Source: Parcubacteria group bacterium (GTDB lineage Bacteria > Patescibacteriota > Minisyncoccia > Phycocordibacterales > Phycocordibacteraceae). From it: a stretch of DNA of 64,000 nt. The DNA lies in contig JAQBRE010000002.1 of NCBI GenBank assembly GCA_028286605.1, positions 262,011-326,010 on the forward strand. Direction: 5' to 3'. This document shows, piece after piece, positions 7,435 to 27,410 of the stretch (the stretch's first letter is position 1; each line of letters starts with the position of its first letter). Made by a program: the position numbers and the translations under genes. The notes beneath the pieces are model-generated. The model did not search any database and was not told the DNA's origin. It worked only from the letters and a program-made list of their open reading frames with translations.

Positions 7435-7507
7435 GCCGATGTAGCTCAGGGGTAGAGCAACTCCATGGTAAGGAGTAGGTCGACAGTTCAATTCTGTCCA
7501 TCGGCTC
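7435..7507 (+). tRNA. tRNA-Thr (anticodon GGT)
   Basis: Manual cloverleaf: acceptor GCCGATG/CATCGGC, D-arm GCTC-AGGGGTA-GAGC, anticodon stem ACTCC/GGAGT with loop ATGGTAA, T-arm GACAG-TTCAATT-CTGTC. Confidence 0.85.
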
Positions 7508-7604
7508 AACAAAAAGTGAAGAACAGCTAAAATATTCCTGGGGCTCTTCTAAAGGAAAGCTGAAGAGTCCTTTTCAGGCACAACCCATTTCTTATAATTA
7601 ATGG

Positions 7605-8045
7605 ATGTCTAATCCGAAGAAAGCAAGAACTCCTTGTCTTGTTTGTTCAAAAGAACCGGCACGCGCAGCATATAAATACTGCAGCAATTCATGTCAGCAA
7701 GAATTCGAATACCGAATGTACATTGAAGAGTGGAAAAGAGGAGAAATATCTGGTCTGGCGAAGATTGGAATCGTATCCAGTACCGTTAAGCGATATCTGA
7801 GAAGAAAATTTAATAACAAATGTTGCGTGTGCGGATGGGAAGAAGTGAATACCAAAACCGGGCTCGTCCCTCTTGTGGCAGATCATATCGACGGGAATTG
7901 GCATAATAACAACGAAAGCAATTTGCGACTTATTTGTCCAAACTGTGATTCACTCACTCATACGTATGCAGCTCTAAATAAAGGAAAAGGAAGGGATAAT
8001 CGTGCTAAAAGTAAACGATCGATGGATGCCCACATGCTTGTCTAA
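7605..8045 (+). CDS. HNH endonuclease
   Basis: 146 aa with an N-terminal CxxC...CxxC pair and the HNH core DHIDGNWHNNNESNLRLICPNCD. Confidence 0.8.
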   Translation: MSNPKKARTPCLVCSKEPARAAYKYCSNSCQQEFEYRMYIEEWKRGEISGLAKIGIVSSTVKRYLRRKFNNKCCVCGWEEVNTKTGLVPLVADHIDGNWHNNNESNLRLICPNCDSLTHTYAALNKGKGRDNRAKSKRSMDAHMLV

Positions 8046-8074
8046 ATGTGCTTTGAAAGGTAATGTTTTCAAAT

Positions 8075-8150
8075 GCCGAGGTAGCTCAGTTGGTAGAGCG
8101 GCGGTATCGTAAATCGTAGGTCGGGAGTTCAAGCCTCCCCCTCGGCTCCA
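8075..8150 (+). tRNA. tRNA-Thr (anticodon CGT), CCA encoded
   Basis: Acceptor GCCGAGG/CCTCGGC, T-arm GGGAG-TTCAAGC-CTCCC, anticodon stem GCGGT/ATCGT (two G-U pairs), loop ATCGTAA. The anticodon assignment is less certain than the tRNA call itself. Confidence 0.75.
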
Positions 8151-8196: not shown

Positions 8197-9099
8197 ATGA
8201 ATCCCGAAGAACGACTCACGGAGATAGAAGCGCTGATGGCATCGCCTAGCTTCTGGAGCGACAAGGACAATGCGCAGAAAGTAGTGCGCGAATATCAGTC
8301 GCTTAAAGAGGGTGGCTCAGGCGATCCGGCAGACGCTCACGACGCGGGCTCAGCAACGCTCGCCATACTCGCCGGCGCAGGCGGCGATGATGCGGAAGAT
8401 TTCGCACGTATGCTGCGCGGCATGTACGAAGGGTACGCGAGCAATAAAGGATGGACCGCACGCGAATTGCATGCGAACGAGAACAATCACGGCGGCTACC
8501 GGAACGTGCTTCTTGAAATAGAAGGACGCGGTGCGTATGGCCGGCTTAAGAAAGAAAGTGGCGTGCACCGCCTCGTGCGCATCTCGCCGTTCAACGCGAA
8601 CGACAAGCGCCAGACTTCATTCGCTCTGGTAGAAGTATTGCCGGTGCTCGCGCCGAATGAACAGGTTGCGCTGAATCCGGATGATCTCGAAGTGACGTTC
8701 GCCCGCTCCGGAGGAGCGGGAGGTCAGAACGTGAACAAGCGCGAAACTGCCGTGCGTATCACACATGTCCCTACCGGCATCTCCGTACACGTTTCCAGCG
8801 AACGCAGCCAGCAAGCGAATCGCGAAAAGGCAGAAGCCTTCATAAAAGCTAAGATATTTGCAAAAGAAGAAGAGAAGCGCCAAGCCGAGGCAAAAGGCCG
8901 CTCGATAGCCGCTACCACGGCAAATGAATGGGGAAGCCAGATGCGCTCGTACGTCCTTCACCCGTATAAGATGGTGAAAGATCACGAAACAGGCCACGAA
9001 TCATCGAATCCTGACGCTGTTTTGGGTGGTGACCTCGATGCATTCATCGATGCAGCCAATGCCGAACCACAGGAATCTGGGCAGGTCGAGGGTGAGTAG
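8197..9099 (+). CDS. prfB: Peptide chain release factor 2 (compact, no frameshift site)
   Basis: SPF tripeptide ([11 protein letters not shown]) plus the GGQ motif ([11 protein letters not shown]). It is 300 aa and starts just after the terminator, with no room for the N-terminal +1 frameshift region. Confidence 0.85.
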
Positions 9100-14658: not shown

Positions 14659-14729
14659 TGCGGGATCGTCTAATGGTAGGACTGCGGTTTCTGGTACCGT
14701 ATATCTAGGTTCGAGTCCTAGTCCCGCAG
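14659..14729 (+). tRNA. tRNA-Gln (anticodon CTG)
   Basis: U1-A72 acceptor TGCGGGA/TCCCGCA with discriminator G; anticodon stem GCGGT/ACCGT and loop TTCTGGT; T-arm CTAGG-TTCGAGT-CCTAG; no CCA encoded. Confidence 0.8.
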
Positions 14730-15084
14730 CTCGCTAACTGTAGTCATCAAAGTTATATAAAAAGAAAACCGCCCTCTCGTCGAAACGAAAGGGTTGTTTT
14801 CGTTTCGCCTATGGGCGGTCATTTAGATTTCCGAATCTCAAAAGATTCACAAAGGTGCAGCTCACGAAGCAATACTCTTGAGTACTTAGAAAATATGTTC
14901 CAGTACTTGTGAACTGAATATAGTTATTACGACTTTTCGGCAGCCCCCAATTCGGTCGTTGCATAATTGGGATCGTCAATTCAGTCACGTCACCTACTCG
15001 TGCAGGCTCGTTTGACGGGTCATGCGCCGATGCTTCCCCTCATATCTACAACATTCAATTCTCCTTGTGTTGTTAAGGCTTCAC

Positions 15085-15459
15085 TCAATCACTGAAGGAC
15101 AGATCATAGAGTGTATCTTCAAACCATTTGAAGATTTGTGGCCATAATGCTTGATGAGGACAGCTCGGGCTAGTCCACCACCGACGAACGCTGGTGATGT
15201 TATACCCCATGCTTTCAGCAAGCATACGATCCCAACCGGGCTTGGTAGAAAAGATCTCCACCAGCATCCGCTTGAAACCTTCCCGACGCAACGGGTTTTC
15301 CTTACTGACTTCCATCTTCGTGCTTTGCACGAGAAGACGAAGGCTTTCATGAACCTGCCGTCGAGAGTTTCTGAGACGTTCGATTGCTTCATCGAACGGA
15401 ATAGGCTCTTTCAAAAAGATCACCTCCTTTCGTGCCAAGTAGGCTGTGTATTTATACAC
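15085..15459 (-). CDS. Hypothetical protein with C-terminal HTH-like segment
   Basis: 124 aa; MLAESMGYNITSVRRWW resembles a DNA-binding HTH; divergent from the GNAT gene across repeat copy A. Confidence 0.4.
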   Translation of the reverse strand: MYKYTAYLARKEVIFLKEPIPFDEAIERLRNSRRQVHESLRLLVQSTKMEVSKENPLRREGFKRMLVEIFSTKPGWDRMLAESMGYNITSVRRWWTSPSCPHQALWPQIFKWFEDTLYDLSFSD

Positions 15460-15471
15460 TTGTAATATATT

Positions 15472-15530
15472 TTGTCAAAGATGGCCTAAACAAAGGATTT
15501 CGGTTCGAATAACGTTCCAGACTGCCAGCT
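15472..15530 (+). repeat. Cassette-boundary direct repeat, copy A (TTGTCAAA...TTTCGGTTCGAATAACGTTCCAGACTGCCAGCT)
   Basis: Aligned by eye with copies B, C and D; ends about 15 nt before the GNAT start. Confidence 0.7.
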
Positions 15531-15544
15531 AGTGATATTCTAGG

Positions 15545-15994
15545 GTGATGATAATTCGAGAACTTCGACAGGAAGATATCTCTGCAGTTGAGGAGATCTT
15601 TGATCTGTACTGGTCAGGAGAATTTCGCGCCCATCTTTCCGAACGTCTGCACTCATCTGATTTGCAATGGACTGTTGCAGAAGAGAACACTGAAATAGTC
15701 GGAGTTGCAGCATCTCGTGAAGCGCCAACAAGAATGCGAAAATACGCAAAGACGGACAGGGTAGTGGAATTTTATATCGCTGCAGCAAAATATAAAGGAA
15801 GGGGTATCGGTACTGCTCTGCGGAATGCTCGGATTGAACAGGCACGAAAAGACGACTTTAAGGAAGTGGTATTTTTCAGTGGCGATACGCATCAAGACTC
15901 GTGGAACTTCCATGACGCCTCAGAGTTTAGGAGGGTTGGAGAGGAGATCGCTCCTGACGGGGAAACTGGCATGATTTGGCTAATGGATCTTTAA
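15545..15994 (+). CDS. GNAT family N-acetyltransferase
   Basis: 149 aa; acetyl-CoA binding-like region AAKYKGRGIGTALRNA; GTG-ATG at the start (ATG at 15548 is likelier). Confidence 0.7.
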   Translation: MMIIRELRQEDISAVEEIFDLYWSGEFRAHLSERLHSSDLQWTVAEENTEIVGVAASREAPTRMRKYAKTDRVVEFYIAAAKYKGRGIGTALRNARIEQARKDDFKEVVFFSGDTHQDSWNFHDASEFRRVGEEIAPDGETGMIWLMDL

Positions 15995-15999
15995 GGAAA

Positions 16000-16029
16000 G
16001 TTCTCGCGTCGTATCAAACCGCCAGCTCG
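16000..16029 (+). repeat. Degenerate copy E of the boundary repeat (GTTCTCGCGTCGTATCAAACCGCCAGCTCG)
   Basis: Shares the GTTC..CGTC....C.GCCAGCTCG core with copies B and D; sits 6 nt after the GNAT stop. Confidence 0.5.
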
Positions 16030-16102
16030 TTAATTTTAGTCATTGTAAATAAAAGAAACCGCCCGAACCGTAAGGAACGGGCAGTTCCTTTTGGTTGGAC
16101 GG

Positions 16103-16519
16103 TTAGCGAAATTCGCGAAGCCATTCGCACGCGTTCTTGACGACTTCGGGCAACATGCCGGGCTTAAACCACTTGCCCTGGTATCGTTGATGATCTCTGA
16201 GCAGGAAATTACCCACTTCTCCTTCGTAGGAAAAGAAGCAGCCGGCGGTCATAAGCATTTTGCCTTTCACGCCGCCATAGGCGGGATAGTACCCGTCCTG
16301 CTGCGTCACGTCGAAGACGTGAACCGCATAGGCATTGTGCGCAGACGGGCCCTGCGAGAGGTCGAGTGCGCAGCTATCGACACGCACGACGCATTTACCG
16401 CGAAGTCTCGAGTGACGCTCAAGCTCACGCTCAAGCATCTCCTTGATGGTGTTGGCGCAGGAAAGCGCCATACGCGTGTCGGGTTTCTCCAAGACGGTAG
16501 TCGACATGACAATCTCCAA
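16103..16519 (-). CDS. Hypothetical protein
   Basis: 138 aa ORF on the opposite strand inside the cassette region; no motif recognised. Confidence 0.4.
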   Translation of the reverse strand: MEIVMSTTVLEKPDTRMALSCANTIKEMLERELERHSRLRGKCVVRVDSCALDLSQGPSAHNAYAVHVFDVTQQDGYYPAYGGVKGKMLMTAGCFFSYEGEVGNFLLRDHQRYQGKWFKPGMLPEVVKNACEWLREFR

Positions 16520-16572
16520 TCAGTGTGAGGCTAGGGCTGTTCTGGGAAGAATCATGGTATATTTAATGCTAT

Positions 16573-16631
16573 TTGTCAAATACAACCTAGACACTCAATT
16601 TCGGTTCGAATATCGTCCCAGACGGCCAGCT
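16573..16631 (+). repeat. Cassette-boundary direct repeat, copy B
   Basis: TTGTCAAATACAACCTAGACACTCAATTTCGGTTCGAATATCGTCCCAGACGGCCAGCT; a 34-nt core identical to copy C. Confidence 0.75.
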
Positions 16632-16728
16632 CGACACTTTCAATAAATAATTGTATATTCATTTCGATCTCAATGGTGAGGTTATGAACCATAGCCGACT
16701 CCCACGAGGATAGGCGACTGGAGGAACG

Positions 16729-17283
16729 ATGTACATTCGAGAAGCTAAAAAACTTGCACAGGCGCTTGCGCCGATCCTGAAGGACCGCGTGCTCGTGCGA
16801 TATGCCGTACAGGGGTGGGGTAAAGTTAGTTACACTGCGGAGCTTGTCGTGGTGGCGACGATCGGTGGCGAGGATTTTCTTTACCAAGCGCAAATCACAT
16901 TGCTGGTTGTGCGCGGTATTACGCAGATCGAGTCGGATTTTAGGCTGCTGAGCCTCAAGACCCAGCCTGACATTCTCGAAAGCGTCACTGAAAGGTGGCT
17001 TAGAAGGAGTGCTGACGACTGGTGTCATGGCGAGCAATTCATGGGCGCCTATGAAATCCTTCGTGACGGACAGCTCTATACTTCGGTCAAGCTTCCGCCA
17101 TTTGATCCCCGTTGGCATCTTCTGGTTGGAGTAATCCTGAGTGAGCTTGGGGCGCAGCAGGGCAAGGTGAACCCGCGAAATGCGGTAGACACCGGCAGCA
17201 TCAATCTAATGAACAAGCGTTATTCTGCCTTCGCTGCCGAAAGTATTTCTGGCTGGGCTCATCAGACTTTTTCGGCGCACTAG
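16729..17283 (+). CDS. Hypothetical protein
   Basis: 184 aa ORF following copy B; no motif recognised. Confidence 0.5.
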   Translation: MYIREAKKLAQALAPILKDRVLVRYAVQGWGKVSYTAELVVVATIGGEDFLYQAQITLLVVRGITQIESDFRLLSLKTQPDILESVTERWLRRSADDWCHGEQFMGAYEILRDGQLYTSVKLPPFDPRWHLLVGVILSELGAQQGKVNPRNAVDTGSINLMNKRYSAFAAESISGWAHQTFSAH

Positions 17284-17347
17284 GCGTATTCCTATCGATA
17301 TAGTTCAGAGCCACTCGAAAGGGTGGCTCTTCAATTTGTATGTTATA

Positions 17348-17396
17348 TGCATTTAAATAAGCATTTCGGTTCGAATATCGTCCCAGACGGCCAGCT
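17348..17396 (+). repeat. Cassette-boundary direct repeat, copy C (left half diverged)
   Basis: ATTTCGGTTCGAATATCGTCCCAGACGGCCAGCT identical to copy B; ends 25 nt before the kinase ATG. Confidence 0.75.
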
Positions 17397-17421
17397 TCTG
17401 TTTTCATGCTCTAATAGTGCT

Positions 17422-18003
17422 ATGCGTGAACATAAAGGAAAGCGACTCTGCATAAGTGGTATTCCGACCGCAGGCAAATCAACTCTAACTAAGAAGCTTG
17501 CTGAAACCGTAAACGGGATCAGTGTATTTCTTGATGATTTTCGAGAAGAACTTGCCTCAGACGAACGCTATATAAAGTGGATCAACTTTTATATCGATCA
17601 GGATCTTGAAACATATTACACAACCACAACTCCTGAGGACGAATGGAAGAATCTGGTCGCTCAATCAGAAGCAATGTGGCCAGCATTTCTAGAACGAATT
17701 AATTCGTATGCAGATGAGGAACGATCAGTCATATTTGAATGCGTAAACTTGCTGCCACATCTTATAAAGAGAGATTTAGGCTTTCCCTGTGTAGTACTTA
17801 TTGGTTCTTCCTACGATGAAACATTGGAGCGTAATAAACGAGAGCCTCGATGGGGAGGCGCAGAACGTGAGCTTGAATTGAACTCGAAGAGCTTCTTTTA
17901 CGTTGAGCGTCCGCATTATCTCGAAGAAGCCGAAAAGTATGGGTATCCTGTATTCGAGACATCTGAAGAAGCTTTTCCATTAGCCTTAGATCTTCTGAAG
18001 TAA
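17422..18003 (+). CDS. P-loop NTPase / nucleotide-kinase-like protein
   Basis: Walker A GIPTAGKST at the N-terminus (MREHKGKRLCISGIPTAGKSTLTKKLAE). The track ORF 17323.. runs through repeat copy C, so ATG 17422 is the likelier start. Confidence 0.6.
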   Translation: MREHKGKRLCISGIPTAGKSTLTKKLAETVNGISVFLDDFREELASDERYIKWINFYIDQDLETYYTTTTPEDEWKNLVAQSEAMWPAFLERINSYADEERSVIFECVNLLPHLIKRDLGFPCVVLIGSSYDETLERNKREPRWGGAERELELNSKSFFYVERPHYLEEAEKYGYPVFETSEEAFPLALDLLK

Positions 18004-18033
18004 GGTTCCCACGTCGTACCAAACTCCCATCTG
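18004..18033 (+). repeat. Degenerate copy F of the boundary repeat (GGTTCCCACGTCGTACCAAACTCCCATCTG)
   Basis: Similar to copy E (GTTCyCrCGTCGTAyCAAAC); starts 1 nt after the kinase stop. Confidence 0.45.
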
Positions 18034-18108
18034 AGGGCGATAGATAAGCATTTTTCTATCTTAGTAATAGAAAACCCGCCGAGACGGAAGGTTTTCCATC
18101 TCAGCGGG

Positions 18109-18666
18109 CTAGCGAACGCAGAGAAACGCGATGAAGCTGTTGAGCGCGATAGCGCCCCAGGGCACGGCCGTGTGGGCCACGTCCTGTTTCTTGGCTCCAT
18201 AGATCGAGAGCGCGCAGCTGACGATCGTGACGAGCCAGAGCCATGTCGTCGAAGACTGCGGCGTGTGCCAGTAGTCCACAATGAGCGGCACGGTCGCGAC
18301 AATGAAGGCGATCACGAAGGCGAAGATCGCAATCTCCGCACTGAGTGTGAGCCACAGCACTACGGCAATGAAGCAGAGCACGAGTGATGCCGATTCCACG
18401 ATGCCCCAGTGCCACGGACTCCGTCCCGCCAAGATGGCGATCAGGATAAGGCATGCAGCTGAGAGCCAGGCGATCTGTAGCAGCGGCAACTTGTTGCCGC
18501 CCCTGATGACCAGGAACAGGCCGAGCGCATCGAGCAGGACAGTCATCCCCCAGGTCGCCACGTTCTGCGGCACTCCCGTTTGATAAATAGTCCAGGCGAA
18601 GTAGGTCGGGGCAGCGAATCCAAGGATGCCGCTTGCCCAGTTGGCGTATTGCTTAGAGCGGTCCAT
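18109..18666 (-). CDS. Hypothetical polytopic membrane protein
   Basis: 185 aa with about 6 hydrophobic helices. Confidence 0.5.
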   Translation of the reverse strand: MDRSKQYANWASGILGFAAPTYFAWTIYQTGVPQNVATWGMTVLLDALGLFLVIRGGNKLPLLQIAWLSAACLILIAILAGRSPWHWGIVESASLVLCFIAVVLWLTLSAEIAIFAFVIAFIVATVPLIVDYWHTPQSSTTWLWLVTIVSCALSIYGAKKQDVAHTAVPWGAIALNSFIAFLCVR

Positions 18667-18727
18667 CCGCGCCTCCTGAATTGTTGAAGATCACGCAACT
18701 GGATATATTTTAAAACTATACTAATCT

Positions 18728-18786
18728 CTTGTCAAACACGACCTAGACGCTCGATTGTAGTTCGGACATCGTCCCAGACGGCCAGC
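18728..18786 (+). repeat. Cassette-boundary direct repeat, copy D
   Basis: TTGTCAAACACGACCTAGACGCTCGATTGTAGTTCGGACATCGTCCCAGACGGCCAGCT. Confidence 0.7.
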
Positions 18787-18819
18787 TCGACGTACTTACG
18801 TATAAGTGGTATTCCAAGA

Positions 18820-19524
18820 GTGGAGCTACGGTTCCGTTCTTTTGCAATCGGAGAAATGACCATGGTTACGACCGGGTATGACACTGTCGCTATTATTTCA
18901 GGGAAGATTCGGATTGATCCAACAACCTTTACGCCCACCGAATGGAAAACTATTATTGATGCTGCCATCAAAGAACTTACGATTGGGTACCTGAGTAATC
19001 TTGAAACAATTGGCCAACTTTTGCTGCCTAAGCGAGCTAACGAAATTAGCACTGAATATAACATATTCAATTTGCTTCATGTTGAACGTTCGTTTGACGA
19101 AAGTATTATGCATCCTGATTTCTTGAATCTCGGCACTCTTGTTGAGTTGCCTGACTGGAGAAGTTGGCCAAAAGCGTCAGCGCACAGTGATAGGTATGCT
19201 GAACTTTGCGAAACTATACTTACACTCAGGCGAGGCAAGCACGGCAGCACACATTTGGTACAAGTGGATATCTTCTGGTACCTCGAGGAAAGCCAGGCGG
19301 AGAGGAGATTGCAAGCCAAGCTGATCGTTATGCGCAACATCGTTGAAATTGATAAGCTCTTTGAGTCGCTCGGAACCACTGCATACCTTCGTGGGAAAAG
19401 AGTACTTTGGCAGCTGTATTCAGCACAAAAATCCACTCTTGCAAATATGAATCAGCGCGCAGCCGCTGCGCAAGAGGCCGCACAAAAGCTGGAGTCTTAT
19501 CTCACTCGAGCAGACATACTTTAG
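18820..19524 (+). CDS. Hypothetical protein
   Basis: 234 aa; an alternative start at ATG 18856 is preceded by CGGAGAA; no motif recognised. Confidence 0.5.
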   Translation: MELRFRSFAIGEMTMVTTGYDTVAIISGKIRIDPTTFTPTEWKTIIDAAIKELTIGYLSNLETIGQLLLPKRANEISTEYNIFNLLHVERSFDESIMHPDFLNLGTLVELPDWRSWPKASAHSDRYAELCETILTLRRGKHGSTHLVQVDIFWYLEESQAERRLQAKLIVMRNIVEIDKLFESLGTTAYLRGKRVLWQLYSAQKSTLANMNQRAAAAQEAAQKLESYLTRADIL

Positions 19525-19528
19525 AAGT

Positions 19529-19556
19529 GGGGCCGCAGCTTGTCTGCGGCCTTTTC
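19529..19556. terminator. Intrinsic terminator
   Basis: GGCCGCAG-CTTGT-CTGCGGCC-TTTTCT. Confidence 0.7.
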
Positions 19557-19562
19557 TATTTT

Positions 19563-19584
19563 GGTTCCCATCAACACCATCTTG
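19563..19584 (+). repeat. Degenerate copy G of the boundary repeat (GGTTCCCATCAACACCATCTTG)
   Basis: Begins GGTTCCCA...CATCT like copy F. Confidence 0.35.
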
Positions 19585-19597
19585 TATACTTATATAT

Positions 19598-19909
19598 ATG
19601 GCCAAAACTATTTCTGGCGGCACGGTACATGATCTGCCAGCAGATGTACGAAAGGCGTTGAAAGCGGATCCTAAAGCTCTTGCGTTGTGGGAAGGTCTTA
19701 CGCCACTCGCACGTAATGAGTGGATTTGTTGGGCTATCTCCGTTAAGAAATCAGAAACGCGTCAGGAGCATATCGAACGAATATGCTCCGAGCTGAAAGA
19801 GGGAATGCGCCGCCCTTGCTGCTGGGTAGGTTGTATTCATCGGAAGGATAAATCATTAAGCCCTTCGCAAAAATACGTGCTTAGTAAACGGCCAAAAAGC
19901 AAGAAATAA
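19598..19909 (+). CDS. YdeI/OmpD-associated family protein (DUF1801-like)
   Basis: 103 aa; LPADVRKALKADPKALALWEGLTPLARNEWICWAISVKK is typical of this family. Confidence 0.6.
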   Translation: MAKTISGGTVHDLPADVRKALKADPKALALWEGLTPLARNEWICWAISVKKSETRQEHIERICSELKEGMRRPCCWVGCIHRKDKSLSPSQKYVLSKRPKSKK

Positions 19910-20062
19910 GAATCCTTAGTATCTAGATATAATTTCTCTATGGAAAGCGAATCCTATCTTCCGCTATATTACTGAGCGGCCGCAGATAAATACCTAAGCA
20001 TTCAGATAGTTTAAATGCAGTCTCAGGCGCCCGCCCGCTTGAGACTTGTTCGGTCTTCCTTT

Positions 20063-20539
20063 CTAACCCTGTCGTGCTGCGTCGATAGCGGCCACGTCAA
20101 TCTTCTGCATGGTCATCATCGCTTTGAACGCGCGCTCTGCTTCTGCGCCACCGATAGCAAATGCCTCAAGCAGCGTACGCGGTGTGATTTGCCATGAAAC
20201 TCCCCAGCGATCCTTGCACCATCCGCAGTCGCTTTCCACGCCGCCATTTCCAACGATCGCGTTCCAATAGCGATCCGTCTCTTCCTGGTCTTCCGTCGTG
20301 ATCTGAAAGGAAAATGCCTCACTTTGCTTAAACGTAGGGCCACCATTGAGACCGACGCAAGGGATTCCACAGACCGTGAACTCCACTGTCAGCGCGTCGC
20401 CCTTCTTTCCATCCGGAAACTCACCAGGCGCGTGAAAAACAGCGCCTACGGTACTATCGGGAAAAGTAGCTGCGTAAAACTTCGCTGCATCTTCCGCGTC
20501 CTTATTGAACCAGAGGCAAATTGTATTTTTCGATATCAT
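20063..20539 (-). CDS. VOC/PhnB-like protein (3-demethylubiquinone-9 3-methyltransferase-domain family)
   Basis: Start taken at the internal Met (MISKNTICLWF...; the track ORF extends to 20578). Glyoxalase-fold pattern typical of PhnB/YjdN. Confidence 0.6.
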   Translation of the reverse strand: MISKNTICLWFNKDAEDAAKFYAATFPDSTVGAVFHAPGEFPDGKKGDALTVEFTVCGIPCVGLNGGPTFKQSEAFSFQITTEDQEETDRYWNAIVGNGGVESDCGWCKDRWGVSWQITPRTLLEAFAIGGAEAERAFKAMMTMQKIDVAAIDAARQG

Positions 20540-20558
20540 AGGTATGTATGTTACACCC

Positions 20559-21029
20559 TTACGCAGAGAGGAACCCATTCAGCTTCTCGAGCTGCTGCGT
20601 GAAGCCCATCTCCATACCTTGAACTGCCATTCCCGCCTTAGGGCCAGTCTTAAGGATAGCCGCTTTAACTTCAACTTTAGTCTTGCCATCGCTTTCAGAA
20701 AGAGTGATCTCGGTCGTCTGATCGATCGTAGTCTCTTCTTTCATACCTTCTGTCCATGCCTGCGCGGTATACGAAAGCTGGGACTCTGGCTCAACAACAG
20801 TGAACTGCGCGAGCATCGGCCACTTCGTACCTTTATACGGACCCATCGCTTCGCCTGCTTCCATCACGATATGAAATGTTCCCCCGACGCGAAGATCAAC
20901 TTCGCATTCAGGAATGCTCACATTGTCCGGACCCCACCACTGCTTCAATTCTTCAGGATCAGTCCATGCCTTCCATACGCGCGAGAGGGAAGCGTCATAA
21001 AGATGCACGAGAGTAATTTCTTTTTCCAT
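20559..21029 (-). CDS. SRPBCC / AHSA1 (activator of Hsp90 ATPase homolog)-domain protein
   Basis: 156 aa; SRVWKAWTDPEELKQWWGP is an AHSA1-family signature; sits next to arsR, a common pairing. Confidence 0.7.
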   Translation of the reverse strand: MEKEITLVHLYDASLSRVWKAWTDPEELKQWWGPDNVSIPECEVDLRVGGTFHIVMEAGEAMGPYKGTKWPMLAQFTVVEPESQLSYTAQAWTEGMKEETTIDQTTEITLSESDGKTKVEVKAAILKTGPKAGMAVQGMEMGFTQQLEKLNGFLSA

Positions 21030-21033
21030 ATGT

Positions 21034-21360
21034 TTATTTTTTATCTTCTAAGAATGTTCCTAATCTATCCAGTCTTCCTTCCCACAGCGCTCGATACTGT
21101 TCCAGATATTTGTCTGCCTGCTGCAGGCCGCCGGGCGAAAGCTCGACGCGTTGTTCACGGCCACGCTTATGCTTGCGCACGAGATTAGCCCGTTCAAGAA
21201 CCTGTATGTGTTTCGAGACTGCTGCGAACGTGAGGTCGTATCGTTGTGCTAATTCTCCGACCGAGTAATCCTGACGACGCAGCCTACGAAGCAAGTCGCG
21301 CCGTGTCGGGTCGGCAAGAGAAGAAAATATGGTGTCGAGCGGACTAGTATATTCAACCAT
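21034..21360 (-). CDS. ArsR/SmtB family transcriptional regulator
   Basis: LADPTRRDLLRRLRRQDYSVGELAQRYDLTFAAVSKHIQVLERANLV is an ArsR-type HTH. Confidence 0.75.
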   Translation of the reverse strand: MVEYTSPLDTIFSSLADPTRRDLLRRLRRQDYSVGELAQRYDLTFAAVSKHIQVLERANLVRKHKRGREQRVELSPGGLQQADKYLEQYRALWEGRLDRLGTFLEDKK

Positions 21361-21465
21361 ATAGTTGAATGATAGTGCAGGTTGATAACTGTGTCAATAC
21401 GCTCAATTCGAAGAACTTTCGTAGTTGTCTTATTCAGGATTCTGATTCAGTGATATGGTACGCAG

Positions 21466-22152
21466 ATGATAGTCACTAAGGACTTGCAGGTAGATATGCG
21501 CGGCGAACCTCTCTTCGAGAAGGTTAATATCGTTATACGTGCGGGCGAGCGCATCGGCGTGCTTGGCCCGAAGGCGAGCGATGTGACGCTTTTCTTCCAT
21601 GTCCTCGTTGGTGAAGCAGAAACGGATGCGGGAAAGGTACTGACCGAAGGAGAACGTGTGGTGTATGTTGATCGTGATACGCTACTCGGCGGTGATGAAT
21701 CGCTTGCGCGCGTGATGCACGCGCGCCCTACCTTTCTTCTTATCGACGCCACGAATCTGACTGCGAGCGCTAACGACCTCGAGCGTGCGAAACGTTTTAT
21801 AGAAAGCTTCCGCGGAGGAATTCTTATCGCAACAGATACTGCGCTGCTTATGAATGCCGCAAAGACCACTCGCGTGTTTGAAATACGCCCTTCGACCAAA
21901 ACTATCACTTCCTATACCGGAAGCTACGCTGCTTACTTGATTGAGAAAGAGAAGAACGATGCGAAGGAACTGGCCGCCTATGAGAAGCAGCAGAAAGAAA
22001 AGCGAAGACTTGAGGATTGGCTTACGAACAAGCGCATAGAAGCGTCGAACGACCGCTCGCCTGAAAAGGGTGCGACCATCCGCACCAAAGCAAAATATTT
22101 GCAGCGCGAGATCCTTGATAAGGAAATACCGAAGCCGAGCCAGTCTGAATAA
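21466..22152 (+). CDS. Degenerate single-domain ABC-F-like protein (catalytic motifs lost)
   Basis: Aligns by eye to an ABC-F N-terminal NBD plus linker, but Walker A is GVLGPKASDV, the signature is LLGG, Walker B is LLIDATN (Glu replaced by Ala) and the H-loop His is replaced by Thr. C-terminal charged coiled-coil. Confidence 0.45.
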   Translation: MIVTKDLQVDMRGEPLFEKVNIVIRAGERIGVLGPKASDVTLFFHVLVGEAETDAGKVLTEGERVVYVDRDTLLGGDESLARVMHARPTFLLIDATNLTASANDLERAKRFIESFRGGILIATDTALLMNAAKTTRVFEIRPSTKTITSYTGSYAAYLIEKEKNDAKELAAYEKQQKEKRRLEDWLTNKRIEASNDRSPEKGATIRTKAKYLQREILDKEIPKPSQSE

Positions 22153-22195
22153 ACTCACAGGAACTACATGCGCTAAAAAGGTATACTGGCCGCAT

Positions 22196-22921
22196 ATGAA
22201 AAAAGAAATAACTTTGAACGGCGTACCCGTATATCACACCTTTCCCGACGACGGCCAGAAGCATCCAGGCCTCATCGTTATCGAAGAGATCTGGGGCGTA
22301 ACCGACCACATAAAGGATGTGGCTGGTCGCTTTGCTGCGCAGGGCTATTCGGTTCTTTCGCCGGAACTCCTGCATGGCATGCCCTTTCTTGGAAAGGTAG
22401 ACCAGAGCGTGCTTGCAGACATGCAAGACCCCGAGAAGCGAGACGAAGCGCAGAAGAAACTGCGAACCGCCATGGCACCTGTTCAGGCGCCGGAATTCGC
22501 AGAAGGAGCCATCGCCGTACTGAAGGCCTGCGTTGATTATCTGATGGCAGACGAGAACGTAGATGGAAACGTCGGCGTCGTCGGATTCTGCTTCGGCGGT
22601 TCATACAGCTTCAAGCTGGCTTCAACCGATTCGCGCATCAAAGCAACGGTGCCATTCTATGGTCATGCGCCTTCAGCAGAGGAAGTAGAAACGATCACGG
22701 GCCCGGTCCTCGCGTTCTATGGAACGGAAGATGCCGCGCTCATGGAATCGCTTCCGAAGCTCAAAGAAGACATGGAGAAAGAAGGGAAGGAGTTTGAGGC
22801 TGTGGTCTTTGAAAACACAGGCCACGCATTCTTCAACGATACGAATGCACTTATGTATCGCCCAGGCCCTGCCGCAGAAGCATGGGATAAGACGCTTGCG
22901 TTCCTCGCGCATAATCTATAA
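22196..22921 (+). CDS. Dienelactone hydrolase family protein
   Basis: alpha/beta hydrolase with a GFCFGG nucleophile elbow; start at ATG 22196 in the track ORF frame. Confidence 0.7.
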   Translation: MKKEITLNGVPVYHTFPDDGQKHPGLIVIEEIWGVTDHIKDVAGRFAAQGYSVLSPELLHGMPFLGKVDQSVLADMQDPEKRDEAQKKLRTAMAPVQAPEFAEGAIAVLKACVDYLMADENVDGNVGVVGFCFGGSYSFKLASTDSRIKATVPFYGHAPSAEEVETITGPVLAFYGTEDAALMESLPKLKEDMEKEGKEFEAVVFENTGHAFFNDTNALMYRPGPAAEAWDKTLAFLAHNL

Positions 22922-22929
22922 TTACTGAT

Positions 22930-23382
22930 ATGAAATTCCTTACCGCATTCCTGGTTGCCCTTATTGGTTCAGTCGTCGTGAACGTTATTATCGTTTCTGT
23001 TCTTGGTCCGATGGTTACTAATCCTGCGATGCCGCTCATGGCGTTGACCATCATGCCTGTTGCTATGTTCACCGCCATCGGTGCAATTGGCGCGACGATC
23101 GTGTACGCGATCATGCGCGCAACGATGATGCGTCCGAACAAAGCATTCATCTGGCTCTCGGTCGTTGTATTCATCGTTTCGTGCTACCCCGATTACATGG
23201 TTATTGGTGCCGTCACTGGTCCGTTCGCTGGCGGTACGCTTGCTGATGCGCTCGTACTTATGCTCATGCACCTTGCTGCCGCGATCATCATTGTTTGGGC
23301 ACTCGTGAAGCTTTGGGGTAGCAGGACGGTGCTCACAAAAATACCAGGCATGCCAACGATGCCGGTTAATCCTCAGGCGTAA
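22930..23382 (+). CDS. Hypothetical 4-TM membrane protein
   Basis: 150 aa, hydrophobic throughout. Confidence 0.5.
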   Translation: MKFLTAFLVALIGSVVVNVIIVSVLGPMVTNPAMPLMALTIMPVAMFTAIGAIGATIVYAIMRATMMRPNKAFIWLSVVVFIVSCYPDYMVIGAVTGPFAGGTLADALVLMLMHLAAAIIIVWALVKLWGSRTVLTKIPGMPTMPVNPQA

Positions 23383-23403
23383 TAGCTTAACCAGAACTCT
23401 TCT

Positions 23404-23784
23404 ATGCTTACCGATTCTCACGCATACAGCGGTTTCTCCGTGAACGATATTGAAAAAGCAAACGAGTTCTATGGTACGACGCTTGGGCTTGATGTGGCAA
23501 AAATGCCTGAGGGTCTGAAGATCAATCTGCCAGGCGGCGGCATGACCTTCATTTATTTGAAGCCGGATCATGTGCCTGCTACGTTCACCATCCTTAACTT
23601 CGAGGTGAAGGATATCGATGCGACGGCAGATGAACTGGTGAAAGCAGGCGTAGTGCTTGAGCGGTATCCGAGTATGCATCAGGACGAGAAGGGAATCGCC
23701 CGCGGCAAAGCCGCGGGCATGGGGCCGGACATCGCGTGGTTCAAGGACCCTGCCGGCAACATTCTTTCAATAACTCATTCGTAA
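23404..23784 (+). CDS. Glyoxalase/bleomycin-resistance (VOC) family protein
   Basis: 126 aa with a VOC-fold pattern (FSVNDIEKANEFYGTTLGL...). Confidence 0.65.
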   Translation: MLTDSHAYSGFSVNDIEKANEFYGTTLGLDVAKMPEGLKINLPGGGMTFIYLKPDHVPATFTILNFEVKDIDATADELVKAGVVLERYPSMHQDEKGIARGKAAGMGPDIAWFKDPAGNILSITHS

Positions 23785-23787
23785 CCG

Positions 23788-24324
23788 ATGACTGATTCGC
23801 AGAGCGACCGCACCGAAGGGTATCATCTGTTTCTTGAGCCTTCAGGTGCGACGGCTGAATCATTGAAGGCAAGTATCGCAGCGCTTGCAGAAGAGTTCGG
23901 CGGACCGACATTTCCCCCACACGTTACGTTGTTGAGTGGTATTGCTACAGAGGAAGAAGAGGTGCTTATAGAGAAAACGGAACAGTTAGCTGCGCTAACT
24001 GTTCCGTTTTCTCTTACGCTTGGCGAAGCGGGAACCGAAGACGCATACTTCCGTGCACTCTATCTGAAGGTTCAGGAGTCAGAGGCGCTTGTTCTATTTC
24101 ATGCGCATGCGAGCGAACTCTTTTCCATGCAAGATGCATCTACGTTCATGCCGCACCTAAGCCTGCTCTATGGGAATTATCCGGAGGAACGCAAAAGAGC
24201 CGCGTTAGCGGCTCTTTTGGTGCCCGAAGGCAGTTTCTCGATTGATCGTATCAGTCTGTATCGCACGGAAGGCACGGTGGCCGACTGGCAGAAAGTAGCG
24301 GATCTATCCCTCGGAACGTACTGA
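23788..24324 (+). CDS. 2H phosphoesterase superfamily protein (LigT/2'-5' RNA ligase-like)
   Basis: Two H-x-T/S-x motifs: PHVTLLSG and PHLSLLYG. Confidence 0.7.
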   Translation: MTDSQSDRTEGYHLFLEPSGATAESLKASIAALAEEFGGPTFPPHVTLLSGIATEEEEVLIEKTEQLAALTVPFSLTLGEAGTEDAYFRALYLKVQESEALVLFHAHASELFSMQDASTFMPHLSLLYGNYPEERKRAALAALLVPEGSFSIDRISLYRTEGTVADWQKVADLSLGTY

Positions 24325-24552
24325 TACGCCCGAGTGAGCGCCCTTGCCCTGAAGCAGCTTGCTCACGCGAGTCGCGTACGGACCTTTGAGGCTCTTCGTC
24401 ACCAAGAAAGCTAGCGTGTCCCCGATGCGGAGGTCCTTGAATGATACGCCCACGAGGTCGCTCGAATCGAAGAACAGCTCTTCCTTGGTACCGTCTTCTT
24501 TTATGAAGCCTGAACCGCGGTCGCTGAATTTTGTGATCTTTCCTGAGTGCAT
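24304..24552 (-). CDS. Cold-shock domain protein
   Basis: KITKFSDRGSGFIKEDG...ELFFDSSDL has the CSD RNP motifs. Confidence 0.7.
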   Translation of the reverse strand: MHSGKITKFSDRGSGFIKEDGTKEELFFDSSDLVGVSFKDLRIGDTLAFLVTKSLKGPYATRVSKLLQGKGAHSGVSVRSEG

Positions 24553-24612
24553 AGTGGTTGTGCTAGTCCTGGTAATGAGAGACGAAAGGCGTCCTTGCGG
24601 ACGCCTTTTCGC

Positions 24613-24822
24613 TTAGACCTTGTGAACGTTGACGGCGTTCTTTTTGCCGTCACCCTTCTCACTGTCCTTAACTTCGAATTCGAGCGTATCTCCGACGTTG
24701 AGGTCTTCGATGCGAACGTTTACGAGGTCAGTTGCATGGAAGAAGAGATCCTTCTCCATACCATCAACTTTAATGAAGCCGAAGCCCTTATCGTTGATAC
24801 CTGCGATTGTTCCTTGTGTCAT
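24613..24822 (-). CDS. Cold-shock protein CspA family
   Basis: MTQGTIAGINDKGFGFIKVDG...DLFFHATDL; start at the internal Met (track 24855). Confidence 0.8.
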   Translation of the reverse strand: MTQGTIAGINDKGFGFIKVDGMEKDLFFHATDLVNVRIEDLNVGDTLEFEVKDSEKGDGKKNAVNVHKV

Positions 24823-24983
24823 GATATATAAGACGATGCACCTGATAACGATCAAGTGCAGGAAAGGCTAAAAATTGGAGTTCGACTCGTTTTCTTCTGC
24901 CCCGCGCTGCGATTGATAAGGACAGTTTACAATTTTCAGGTTTATTTGTCAAACCCCGCCATTAGGTGCGCTATTATAGGCAT

Positions 24984-25142
24984 ATGAAACAGATGGTGTG
25001 GCTCGGAGGATTCGTCGGCTCGACGGCAGGCGGCTATATACCTGCGCTCTGGGGCGGCAGCCTTTTTTCCTTCTCCTCCATCATTCTGGGCGCTATAGGC
25101 GGAGCAGCAGGAATCATTATTGCCTGGAAGATGACGAATTAG
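24984..25142 (+). CDS. Small glycine-zipper membrane protein (52 aa, below the ORF-track cutoff)
   Basis: MKQMVWLGGFVGSTAGGYIPALWGGSLFSFSSIILGAIGGAAGIIIAWKMTN translated by hand; ends 5 nt before the permease ATG; resembles GlsB/YeaQ/YmgE-type small proteins. Confidence 0.4.
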   Translation: MKQMVWLGGFVGSTAGGYIPALWGGSLFSFSSIILGAIGGAAGIIIAWKMTN

Positions 25143-25147
25143 GTGGT

Positions 25148-25981
25148 ATGAGCTTGCGACCACTTAGAAAGAAGCATCACGTGCTGTATTACAGCCATCA
25201 CGGCCGGCCGCCTCGGCCGGTGCATATCGTGCATCGCTTCGCGATGCCTATCGTTGTACCGCTCTTGCTCGTGCTTGGCAGTGCTTTCATCGCCACCGGA
25301 TACTTCGTCGTGCCGAGTTCGTATGCGGCAGAAGGTGCGCGGTTGCTCGCTGCGCTCGGCGCGTCGCTTCTGCGTCTTCTCATCGCGTTCGTGCTCTCGC
25401 TGCTTGTTGGAATCCCGCTCGGCCTCTGGGCCGAGCGAAGCCGTCGCGCAGAAAGCATTCTTCTTCCCGTATTCGATGTACTGGAGTCGATGCCAGTGCT
25501 CGCATTCTTTCCCGTTATCATTTTGTTCTTCTTGCATGCAGGATTACTCGAAGGCGCAGCGATATTCATCATCTTCTTCAGCATGGTATGGAGCATCGCC
25601 TTCAGCGTAGTGGGCGGATTGAAACAGATTCCTGCAGATGTGAAAGCAGTGGGGAAGATCTTCGGACTCACGCGCTGGCAGCGCTTCCGTGAAATTCTGT
25701 TGCCTGCGCTCTTTCCGGCAACACTCACCGGTTCCATCCTCGCACTTGCTGCGGGTTGGAATATCGTGATCGTTTCGGAAGCATTGCACGCGTATTCGCC
25801 GCATGCCGCACAGGCGCACGACTTGTTCGGCCTGGGCAGCATCATCGTCGCGGCATCGGTAGGTGGCCAGAATGCACTGCTCGTTTCTGCGATGCTCCTT
25901 CTTGTGATTACTATCGCGCTGGTGAACCTGTTTATATGGCAGCCGCTTCTTGCGCATGCTGAGCGCTTTAAATTTGAATAA
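25148..25981 (+). CDS. ABC transporter permease (NitT/TauT, SsuC-like)
   Basis: 6 TM helices with the EAA-like loop; start at ATG 25148 in the track frame (MSLRPL...). Confidence 0.8.
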   Translation: MSLRPLRKKHHVLYYSHHGRPPRPVHIVHRFAMPIVVPLLLVLGSAFIATGYFVVPSSYAAEGARLLAALGASLLRLLIAFVLSLLVGIPLGLWAERSRRAESILLPVFDVLESMPVLAFFPVIILFFLHAGLLEGAAIFIIFFSMVWSIAFSVVGGLKQIPADVKAVGKIFGLTRWQRFREILLPALFPATLTGSILALAAGWNIVIVSEALHAYSPHAAQAHDLFGLGSIIVAASVGGQNALLVSAMLLLVITIALVNLFIWQPLLAHAERFKFE

Positions 25982-25982
25982 T

Positions 25983-26705
25983 ATGGAAGATTCCGCACCC
26001 ATCCTTTCGTTCGAGGCCGTATCCTTCGGATACGGCCCGCACCTGCCGTCCATACTCACCAATGTGAGCTTCATGCTGAAGCCCGATACCTTCACGGTTA
26101 TCGTCGGTCCTTCTGGCGGCGGCAAATCTACGCTGCTGCGTTTGGCATCGAGGCTCGACGTCCCTACGAGCGGCACGGTGAAAAATACCGCCCGCACGCG
26201 CATGATCTTCCAGAATGCGGCACTGCTTCCGTGGAAGACCGCACTTCAGAATGTACTCGTCGGCACGACGGATCTTCCTGGTACACCTGCAGAGAAAAAG
26301 GCGCGCGCTCTCGCTGCACTTGCTGAAATGAGTCTTACCGAACACGCGAACAAGACGCCACGCGAGCTTTCGGGCGGGCAGCGTCAGCGTGTGGGTATCG
26401 CACGTGCACTCGTTTCAGAGCCACAGTTCCTTCTTCTGGATGAACCGTTCTCTGCACTCGATTTCGAAACCGCAGAAAAGCTTTCACAGGAAGTACTCGC
26501 CATCTTCAACAAGAAGGGAATCACGATGCTCATGGTTTCGCATAGTATCGAAGATGCGGTGCTCCTTGCTGATGAAATCCTCGTCTGTGCGGGCGGCACG
26601 ATCGCGGATCACGTTGTCGTTCCCATGCCGCGTCCGCGCAATCGCACGGATGCGCAGGTTCTCGCGCTCATTGCGCAGGTACGGAAGTTCATTCCTGAAT
26701 CATAA
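25983..26705 (+). CDS. ABC transporter ATP-binding protein (SsuB/TauB-like)
   Basis: Walker A GPSGGGKST, signature LSGGQRQRV, Walker B LLLDEPFSALD; start at the MEDS Met right after the permease stop. Confidence 0.85.
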   Translation: MEDSAPILSFEAVSFGYGPHLPSILTNVSFMLKPDTFTVIVGPSGGGKSTLLRLASRLDVPTSGTVKNTARTRMIFQNAALLPWKTALQNVLVGTTDLPGTPAEKKARALAALAEMSLTEHANKTPRELSGGQRQRVGIARALVSEPQFLLLDEPFSALDFETAEKLSQEVLAIFNKKGITMLMVSHSIEDAVLLADEILVCAGGTIADHVVVPMPRPRNRTDAQVLALIAQVRKFIPES

Positions 26706-26707
26706 GC

Positions 26708-27307
26708 ATGCATCTATTCAGTCTTTCGCTTCCGATCATCCTTTCGACATTCGGCATCATATTCATTTCGGAACTTCCCGATAAGACCGCACTCGCTTCG
26801 CTTGTGCTCGCCACGCGATATAAAGCGCATGAAGTGATAACCGGCGCATGGCTCGCGATGCTCGTGCAGACCATAGTTGCCGTTACGGCAGGAGGCTTGC
26901 TCGCGTTCCTTCCTGCACGGCCCGTGCATATCGTGGCGGGAATCGGCTTCTTCATATTTTCGTACTTGGCGTTCACTCGTAAGGAAGAAGTCGACCTCGT
27001 GAAGGAAGAGGATAAGGTGCATGCAGAAACACATCGCCCGGCATGGGTGGCGAGCCTTCTTGTAGTGTTCGCTGCAGAGTGGGGAGATCTTTCCCAGCTT
27101 GCCACCGCAGGTCTCGCCGCACATACGGCATCACCGCTTTCCGTGGGTATCGGTGCTGTGCTCGGGCTGTGGGCAGTTATCGCGATTGCCGCGCTCGTGG
27201 GCGGCCAGCTTAATAAGGTTCTCACTCCAAAGCGCCTTAACATCCTCAGCGGAACGCTCTTCGCGCTCGTTGGCGCGTTCATGTTCTTCTCTGCGTTGAC
27301 AGCGTAA
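26708..27307 (+). CDS. GDT1/TMEM165 (UPF0016) family cation/H+ antiporter-like membrane protein
   Basis: Two E-x-G-D-(K/R)-(T/S) type motifs: ELPDKT and EWGDLSQ. Confidence 0.75.
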   Translation: MHLFSLSLPIILSTFGIIFISELPDKTALASLVLATRYKAHEVITGAWLAMLVQTIVAVTAGGLLAFLPARPVHIVAGIGFFIFSYLAFTRKEEVDLVKEEDKVHAETHRPAWVASLLVVFAAEWGDLSQLATAGLAAHTASPLSVGIGAVLGLWAVIAIAALVGGQLNKVLTPKRLNILSGTLFALVGAFMFFSALTA

Positions 27308-27376
27308 GTCGGGAGGATTATTATAATCAACGACAACTCCTTCATTCATTTGGCTTAAAATCCAAGCGAGGGTAGA

Positions 27377-27410
27377 ACAGACAACCGGCCGAAAGGCCGG
27401 TTGTCTGTTT
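27377..27410. terminator. Intrinsic terminator
   Basis: ACAGACAACCGGCC-GAAA-GGCCGGTTGTCTGTTT. Confidence 0.75.

Follow-up and report, generated by a model that had tools for sequence, protein, structure and literature searches.

A 64 kb stretch of contig JAQBRE010000002.1 from a Parcubacteria group bacterium (GCA_028286605.1; hereafter the window, whose numbering is used throughout) contains, between a tRNA-Gln gene (14659–14730) and position 19581, seven consecutive small gene units that each end in a copy, in one case decayed, of the same 33 nt motif. This region is probably a chromosomal gene-cassette array produced by site-specific exchange at the ...CAGC| end of a motif carried by the cassettes, with the tRNA-Gln end as primary site and a recombinase supplied in trans. 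A cassette would comprise a single gene, which often brings its own promoter and terminator, and a 33 nt recombination site at the 3′ end; cassettes would be gained, lost and reshuffled by strand exchange at or just after the terminal ...CAGC. The 3′ end of tRNA-Gln (C71-A72-G73-C74, preceded by GTTCGA and GTCC.AG blocks like those of the motif) would act as the fixed primary attachment site; in consequence the tRNA would stay intact and the array would grow downstream. The recombinase would be encoded elsewhere in the genome. A sequence-only reading of the window had proposed an integron-like array of single-gene cassettes with a repeat in one orientation, and both the distribution of the motif and the turnover of cassettes between relatives support that proposal.

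The motif has the form A-N5-GTTCGAATATCGTCCCAGACGGCCAGC, and its degenerate form is A-N5-GTTC(G/C)(A)A(T/C)(A)TCGT(C/A)CCA(G/A)AC-NN-CCAGC. In the position matrix the A at −5 is nearly invariant and is followed by GTTC at 1–4, A7, TCGT at 10–13, CCA at 15–17, AC at 19–20 and CCAGC at 23–27. Position 23 carries 1.25 bits of information and positions 24–27 (CAGC) carry 1.4 bits or more, whereas the value is 0.5 bits or less from position 28 on, which places a sharp boundary directly after ...CAGC. The variants GTTCGAATATCGTCCCAGACGGCCAGC, GGTTCCAACATCGTCCCAGACNGCCAGC, GGTTCCCACGTCGTACCAGACGGCCAGC and GGTTCCCACGTCGTACCAAACCCCCAGC grade into one another, and the left and right halves of the classes are found in mixed combinations.

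A scan of GTDB with the query GTTCGNNNNNCGTNCCAGACNGCCAGCT, one genome per species, found the motif in 8 genomes, all of them Patescibacteria (Nomurabacteria, Adlerbacteria, Paceibacterota, Saccharibacteria, and Parcubacteria C7867-004 and C7867-008), and a metagenome collection yielded 18 further contigs. NCBI assigns Adlerbacteria and Saccharibacteria to separate candidate phyla; across contigs of different candidate phyla the motif core is 90–100 % identical and the flanks are unrelated. Counted with a profile plus a degenerate pattern there are 90 copies in 25 non-redundant sources (individual sources are denoted L below), with a single orientation per source in every source, against 2 matches per 1.17 Mb of shuffled sequence. 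Three motif patterns gave 0 matches in viral contigs, and thus nothing points to a phage or plasmid carrier. The 65 intervals between motifs have a median length of 605 nt (range 227–4402 nt), and 50 of them hold exactly one open reading frame (ORF) of at least 50 aa. Relative to the motif 59 ORFs run in the same direction and 17 in the opposite one, while the motif itself never flips. Of 46 cases in which gene and motif are co-oriented, 17 have the motif starting no more than 5 nt past the stop codon.

Each genome or large contig (340–690 kb) contains one motif stretch, and the motif is therefore not a dispersed repeat. A length of about 28 nt, similar to that of repetitive extragenic palindromes (REP) and of clustered regularly interspaced short palindromic repeats (CRISPR), might suggest an element of that kind, or one resembling miniature inverted-repeat transposable elements (MITE), clustered here by chance. 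The distribution refutes this, and its probability is vanishingly small. REP and MITE elements are scattered genome-wide, whereas the motif occupies a single locus; CRISPR spacers are regular and 25–50 nt long, whereas whole genes lie between copies spaced 227–4402 nt apart; the motif is no palindrome, and an Rfam search of positions 13–22 kb of the window, at E values up to 10, returned the tRNA alone and no CRISPR-DR match on the motif. The sequence-only reading had itself named a dispersed REP/MITE-like element as one outcome that would speak against it; instead, copies in the window are confined to 15.5–19.6 kb.

The window was examined with a repeat finder, ARAGORN, Rfam, Pfam, and promoter and terminator scans. 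The repeat finder returned four direct 63 nt copies, A (15472–15534), B (16573–16635), C (17338–17400) and D (18729–18791), and a second repeat family that ties E (15999–16029) and F (18004–18034) to A–D. A search for a 29 nt core on both strands of the 64 kb, allowing at most 3 mismatches and with 100 shuffles as control, found 4 matches, all on the plus strand, against 0.00 expected, and none elsewhere in the window. Both results agree with the earlier description of strong copies A–D and weaker copies E–G, in one orientation and at these positions; the earlier observation of a 34 nt core common to B and C also holds, ATTTCGGTTCGAATATCGTCCCAGACGGCCAGCT being identical in both. Copies E–G had been called degenerate, and they are indeed weaker. 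However, E and F are not products of random decay; they represent a variant class, GGTTCCCACGTCGTACCAAACYCCCAGC, with conserved members in other genomes. Copies E, F and G fall in the GGTTCCCACGTCGTACCAAACCCCCAGC class, which is also conserved in L007, L010, L013 and L034; G (19563–19581), read from the sequence, is an F-type copy minus 9 nt. The earlier count of at least four cassettes, each preceded by a repeat, stands as to the array and changes as to the unit. Each repeat forms the 3′ end of the cassette to its left; a unit is therefore a gene plus its 3′ motif, and the window holds seven cassettes rather than four. With cassette spans counted from junction to junction, that is, from directly after ...CAGC, the region is laid out as follows.

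14659–14730, plus strand: tRNA-Gln(CTG), found by ARAGORN and by Rfam (tRNA, 57 bits)
14727–14730, plus strand: tRNA-Gln end ...CAGC, proximal array boundary and proposed primary attachment site
14731–15529: cassette 1, with a 124 aa ORF of no family (15085–15459, minus strand) and its promoter; ends in motif A
14772–14793, minus strand: terminator of cassette 1
15497–15529, plus strand: motif A, class 1 with 3 mismatches
15530–16026: cassette 2, with a GNAT acetyltransferase ORF (15545–15994, plus strand; Pfam Acetyltransf_1, 5.7e-10); ends in motif E
15994–16026, plus strand: motif E, variant class, AGTTCTCGCGTCGTATCAAACCGCCAGC, beginning at the GNAT stop codon
16027–16630: cassette 3, with a terminator, a 138 aa ORF of no family (16103–16519, minus strand) and a promoter running from 16579 to 16551; ends in motif B
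16598–16630, plus strand: motif B, class 1, consensus
16631–17395: cassette 4, with a 184 aa ORF of no family (16729–17283, plus strand) and a terminator; ends in motif C
16631–16659: own promoter of cassette 4
16664–16728: conserved 5′ leader of cassette 4
17363–17395, plus strand: motif C, class 1, consensus
17396–18031: cassette 5, with a P-loop kinase-like ORF (17422–18003, plus strand); ends in motif F
18000–18031, plus strand: motif F, class 2b, GGTTCCCACGTCGTACCAAACTCCCATC, directly after the kinase stop codon
18032–18786: cassette 6, with a membrane-protein ORF (18109–18666, minus strand); ends in motif D
18110 to 18073: terminator of cassette 6
18735 to 18707: promoter of cassette 6
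18754–18786, plus strand: motif D, class 1 with 3 mismatches
18787–19581: cassette 7, with a 220 aa ORF (18862–19524, plus strand) and a terminator (19529–19553); ends in the decayed motif G
19563–19581, plus strand: motif G, F-type with a 9 nt internal deletion, GGTTCCCATCAACACCATC
19598–19909, plus strand: OmdA-family gene (Pfam OmdA, 3.4e-19)

Adjacent cassettes range in GC content from 42 to 60 %, against 51 % for the whole window. The minus-strand ORF of cassette 1 had been called a helix-turn-helix gene; it has no Pfam match. The kinase-like ORF of cassette 5 matches Pfam AAA_18 weakly (1.1e-4, under the curated cut-off), and an exact-protein look-up gave no match. The start of the cassette 7 ORF at 18862 is the one called on L009, a contig identical to the window, and its longest reading begins at 18820. 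Near-identical copies of motif F occur in L007, L010, L013 and L034, and L034 carries an intact class 2b motif at the position equivalent to G, before its OmdA gene. The window and L034 have that gene in common, and it is also found on the distal side of the L003 and L027 arrays; it is either a distal flank or an old last cassette.

The ends of the cassettes recur independently of their genes. The left end of cassette 1 (TCGCTAACTGTAGTCAT...AAAAGAAAACCGCCC) is found again directly after motifs at 16027 in the window, at 11701 in L017, in L021 and at 2585 in L033. More broadly, cassettes with minus-strand genes have common ends although the genes are unrelated: a left end TCG(C/T)TAAYTNTAGTCAT...AAAAGAAAACCGCCC and a right end TTGTCAA(−35)...(A/G)CCTA(G/A)ACACTC(A/G)ATTTCG followed by the motif. 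These ends lie at 14731–14800, 16027–16100, 15472–15500, 16573–16600 and 18729–18757 in the window, and elsewhere in L017 (11701–12281), L021, L033 (2578–2945) and L010. They look like a reusable cassette 'backbone'.

In 10 sources (the window, L003, L005, L013, L016, L019, L023, L026, L027 and L028) the array directly follows a co-oriented tRNA-Gln gene (CTG or TTG). The genes upstream of the anchoring tRNA vary by source (MetK, DnaX, ArsR-type, His_Phos, Exo_endo_phos). These tRNA genes end in ...CAGC and the motif in ...CCAGC; when the two are right-aligned without gaps they have GTCC.AG.C...CAGC in common, and the motif carries a T-loop-like GGTTCGA, as in tRNA-Gln. The two differ by 5 nt in length and by several substitutions, with alignment scores of 7–13. 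The likeness of the motif to the tRNA-Gln end may be taken as a lead, not as proof. The CAGC end derives from G2-C71, U1-A72, G73 and C74, which are features of bacterial tRNA-Gln and could explain the preference for this tRNA.

Two contigs place one cassette behind both kinds of site. From GCAGC|AAACATAATATG onward, L026 and L022 have 99.9 % identity over 2916 nt; they are unrelated upstream, where L026 has tRNA-Gln and L022 has the motif-like site AGGTTCGGATTTGGTAGTATAAAGCAGC. A cassette found behind the tRNA in one case and behind a cassette site in the other is what insertion at the tRNA end predicts. Likewise, the sequence that follows tRNA-Gln in the window (from 14731) is homologous to sequence that follows motifs at 16027 in the window, at 11701 in L017 and in L021; the post-tRNA sequence of L013 (AATTGACTTTT) is homologous to post-motif sequence at L013 8273, L013 855 and L007 6016; and the same relation holds between L015 and L020, both from one metagenome. 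In L033, whose array has no tRNA-Gln in the available sequence, a 23 nt site at 199–221, GGTTCGAGTCCCAGACTGCCAGC, directly follows a peptidase-like gene and reads like the T-loop region of tRNA-Gln (GGTTCGAGTCC) fused to the right half of the motif.

Such an anchor is also expected if integrase-bearing islets struck the tRNA-Gln 3′ end repeatedly, left copies of their attachment (att) sites and then lost their integrases, so that the array would be a fossil of tandem accretion in which nothing is mobile now. The repeat does resemble the tRNA end (GGTTCGA..GTCC.AG..CAGC), and some copies are decayed, namely G in the window, the motifs of L031 and the split ones of L003. Nevertheless this origin is unlikely. 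Repeats left by att sites copy the local tRNA end, whereas the motif differs from every tRNA-Gln in length, by 5 nt, and by substitutions, and is nearly constant among candidate phyla that differ in their tRNA-Gln acceptor stems. Each unit is a single gene of some 0.6 kb, cassette content varies between related genomes, and Pfam scans of ORFs in and beside about 25 arrays found no integrase or fragment of one. The sequence-only reading had left open a decayed accretion beside a cassette system with a distant recombinase; the strong conservation of the motif across phyla makes the former the less likely of the two.

Cassette content differs between relatives at the repeats. Homologues of the cassette 4 gene occur in L007, L033 (75 % at the aa level), L034 (74 %), L031 (64 %) and L028 (57 %), so that with the window the family is seen in six different neighbour contexts, and the motifs bound the homology. 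Of the six copies, four or five have a class 1 motif 3′ of the gene, but the motif upstream can be of class 1, 1b or 2b. This pattern fits a site that moves together with the cassette to its left. The 5′ leader of this cassette (16664–16728) is more conserved than its coding sequence, with homologues in L033 (1320–1385), L007 (6060–6100), L028 (9895–9955), L031 (430–490) and L034 (720–785); it forms a hairpin with some compensatory changes, followed by an invariant CCAUAGCCGAC...GGAUAGGCGACUGGAGGA that ends in a ribosome-binding site, and is a candidate cis-regulatory RNA without an Rfam match.

L034, which comes from the same sequencing run as L009, has a distal flank in common with the window, with nt identities of 74 % for OmdA and 88 % for 3-dmu-9_3-mt. 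Between cassette 4 and OmdA it carries a 305 aa gene and an unrelated P-loop gene, unlike the kinase, membrane protein and 220 aa ORF of the window. On the proximal side, L005 and L028 are syntenic with the window (ftsX-pyrG...tRNA-Gln) and carry other cassettes. The variation at repeat boundaries that the sequence-only reading had suggested looking for is thus present in L005, L028, L034 and L033 relative to the window, and in L022 relative to L026. L028, L029 and L030 were considered as a further case of cassette replacement and rejected, as they are the same sequence with single nucleotide polymorphisms.

Distal to the array, at 19600–28800, the window contains a run of small accessory-type genes, including OmdA and 3-dmu-9_3-mt, with no recognisable motifs. 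Homologues of two of these genes, a methyltransferase (27551–28339) and a GNAT gene (28321–28794), are motif-flanked cassettes elsewhere (L015 608–1342 and L016 1178–1666), the L016 homologue being the one that comes first after tRNA-Gln. No decayed motif was recognisable near them in 27100–27600, 28740–28860 or 29640–30800. The two window genes may be fossil cassettes.

Turnover of this kind could, in principle, arise without a dedicated recombinase if the motif were a landing pad for RecA, transformed cassettes being swapped with the 27–33 nt motifs and the tRNA as homology arms. The Pfam scans found no recombinase linked to the arrays, the halves of motif classes do occur in mixed combinations, and bacteria of the candidate phyla radiation (CPR) commonly encode competence machinery. 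This account is nonetheless rather improbable. The near-invariance of 33 nt across phyla and the stop of conservation at CAGC are left unexplained by it, as is the position of a cassette directly after tRNA-Gln, which has only scattered identity with the motif; and a homology of 27 nt lies at the lower limit for RecA-dependent exchange.

The promoters around the motif raise a further alternative. Read on the opposite strand, the TTGTCAA extension found in A, B and D supplies the TTGACA −35 box for promoters of minus-strand genes; at B and D these promoters come from the promoter scan, and at A from our own reading (TTGACA, 17 nt, ATAAAT), unreported by the scan. With A taken on that reading, all three copies lie between divergent promoters. 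In general −35-like boxes (AATTGACT, TCGACA, TTGACA) often follow the motif by 0–7 nt, and the motif often directly follows the stop codon of a co-oriented gene and has a T-loop-like GTTCGAA. It might therefore be a cis-regulatory or RNA signal, such as an activating site, an insulator or a tRNA-like element for 3′-end processing or stability, with the array a by-product of gene gain and loss. We consider this quite unlikely. The orientation of the motif is constant in each array although 17 of 76 genes are inverted, and the signal of a regulon would not be expected to sit at one tRNA-Gln locus or to mark homology breakpoints. There is no conserved fold or covariation: the mean z-score for folding is −0.47, the longest complementary word in the 120 nt upstream of the motif averages 5.4 nt against 5.3 nt in shuffles, classes 2 and 2b disrupt the sole small hairpin (CGTC-CCA-GACG), and Rfam returns nothing for the motif. 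Two irregular copies in L003, one split into GTTCGAATATCGTC and CCCAGACGGCCAGC 54 nt apart (2945–3031) and one with a 12 nt internal duplication (3961–4005), are observations apart; the split copies were considered as hybrid sites that would show the crossover point and were rejected as degenerate or duplicated on inspection.

The cargo of the arrays comprises NUDIX and GNAT proteins, methyltransferases, P-loop kinases, VOC/glyoxalase proteins, hydrolases, nucleoside deoxyribosyltransferase-like proteins, AbiU2 (Abi-type defence), AAA_21, an extracytoplasmic function (ECF) sigma factor and many orphans. This cargo is heterogeneous, in line with the earlier description of the window, and accessory in type. 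The only nuclease-type matches among the scanned ORFs occur in one genome each, a GIY-YIG (UPF0213-like) ORF in L003 and an Endonuc_Holl ORF in L027. The latter (8639–9076, minus strand) encodes a membrane-anchored protein resembling archaeal Holliday-junction resolvases, lies among the first genes after tRNA-Gln in a Saccharibacteria array and is probably cargo.

Several observations weigh against a cassette array formed by site-specific exchange. In the window no recombinase was found among about 45 ORFs scanned with Pfam or among the remaining translations read by eye, as the sequence-only reading had stated, and in about 25 sources Pfam scans of the genes upstream of tRNA-Gln, inside the arrays and distal to them found no integrase, resolvase, transposase, Rep or relaxase. 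Neither a circular cassette nor an empty site was observed. The motif lacks dyad symmetry or a hairpin, unlike the core sites of tyrosine and serine recombinases and unlike attC, and promoter −35 boxes often abut it, as a regulatory role would allow. Six arrays (L001, L007, L008, L017, L018 and L033) have no tRNA-Gln in the available sequence, and the likeness between motif and tRNA-Gln 3′ end is moderate, with tRNA-Trp scoring similarly at 10.5. In the best insertion polymorphism, that of L022 against L026, just 30 nt of the alternative upstream side are present, and contigs assembled from metagenomes can be chimeras joined at repeats. As no recombinase was found, the catalytic step is entirely inferred; the same applies to enzymatic site-specific exchange, its direction and any present-day activity. 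Observed directly are the motif, the arrays, their single locus per genome, the tRNA-Gln anchor, the boundary position, the turnover of cassettes between relatives and, within the scanned ORFs, the lack of a linked recombinase.

The known systems nearest to this arrangement are sedentary chromosomal integrons and clusters of attC sites lacking integron-integrases (CALIN). As in those, cassettes are mostly single-ORF, mostly co-oriented and about 0.5–1 kb long; all sites have one orientation; the recombination site is 3′ and often overlaps the stop codon; the cargo is accessory (GNAT, NUDIX, VOC, methyltransferases) and differs between relatives; and new cassettes appear to be added at one fixed site on the proximal side. 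However, no intI tyrosine recombinase was detected among the Pfam-scanned ORFs in or beside the arrays of about 25 sources. The attC sites are imperfect inverted repeats of 55–141 nt (R''/L''-L'/R') that fold as single strands, whereas the motif is asymmetric, 33 nt long, begins with GTTC(G/C) and not with the GTTRRRY of attC R', and is conserved in sequence, not in structure. The proximal site is the end of tRNA-Gln and not attI with its promoter Pc, and the genes upstream of the tRNA are unrelated housekeeping genes. Furthermore, many cassettes here have their own promoters, and the hosts are Patescibacteria. Since the intI and attC-structure tests fail, the system is integron-like in its working but is not an integron.

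Tandem accretion, as known from integrative and conjugative elements (ICE), cis-mobilizable elements (CIME) and tandem genomic islands, likewise involves a tRNA 3′ anchor, end-like direct repeats and tandem units that may be integrase-less. Those islands measure several kb, against one gene of about 0.6 kb per unit here; the repeat appears to be conserved separately rather than copied from the local tRNA end, and the Pfam scans found no integrase in or beside about 25 arrays. The pdif/Xer modules of Acinetobacter plasmids are small gene modules with 28 bp sites whose XerC/D enzymes are encoded elsewhere, on the chromosome. Their sites consist of XerC and XerD arms of 11 bp with partial dyad symmetry around a 6 bp spacer and alternate in orientation, in contrast to the asymmetric and always direct motif. 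Finally, since all conservation of the motif lies 5′ of the junction, it could, speculatively, be compared with sites of HUH systems (IS200/IS605, IS91/ISCR, relaxase nic sites), whose requirements, from general knowledge, all lie 5′ of the joining point. Where an HUH-type site occurs as direct repeats, the segment between them could be excised together with a single copy. Against this comparison, the scanned sequence contains no HUH, Rep or relaxase gene, and the subterminal hairpin usually required by such enzymes is absent or not conserved.

The array would belong with the cassette arrays made by site-specific recombination, and there is a substantial chance that its enzyme and type of site are new. 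No description of this system, the motif sequence itself included, was found in the searchable literature, and a 2025 paper on horizontal gene exchange in Patescibacteria does not describe it.

Two other features of the window lie at some distance from the array. At 7435–8150 two tRNA-Thr genes flank a 146 aa ORF (7605–8045), in which an HNH-like motif (HIDGN...N..NL.LICPNC) can be read by eye and which has no Pfam match at 1e-3. Just 37 nt separate the two tRNA-Thr genes of the syntenic L028 (1572–1644 and 1681–1754), and for this reason the ORF looks like an inserted homing-endonuclease-like gene. A heme-copper oxidase cluster at 694–5438 (subunits II, I and III, a small subunit and heme O synthase, by reading of translations) is unusual for Parcubacteria, and a stretch homologous to it occurs in L008 (5334–7979), a few kb from the array.

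CPR/Patescibacteria are episymbionts with genomes of about 1 Mb and, to our knowledge, few recognised mobile elements, and the array bears on how they acquire accessory genes. A bolder reading, possible though held only tentatively, is that Patescibacteria have a gene-capture platform of their own, independent of integrons, in which a recombinase in trans, of a kind not yet connected with cassette arrays, acts on a 33 nt site resembling the tRNA-Gln 3′ end, with that end as primary site and with exchange of cassettes across candidate phyla; the enzyme might be, for example, a housekeeping Xer-like recombinase or a single-strand transferase. Because the site is short, defined by sequence and easily searched, a catalogue of cassettes, identification of the recombinase by co-occurrence and assays on synthetic substrates are directly testable routes. 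A recombinase that needs just a 33 nt asymmetric site on one side of the junction could also serve as a tool. If this reading is true, the arrays would be a main route by which members of the CPR gain genes horizontally, and a second, independently evolved solution to the problem solved by integrons.

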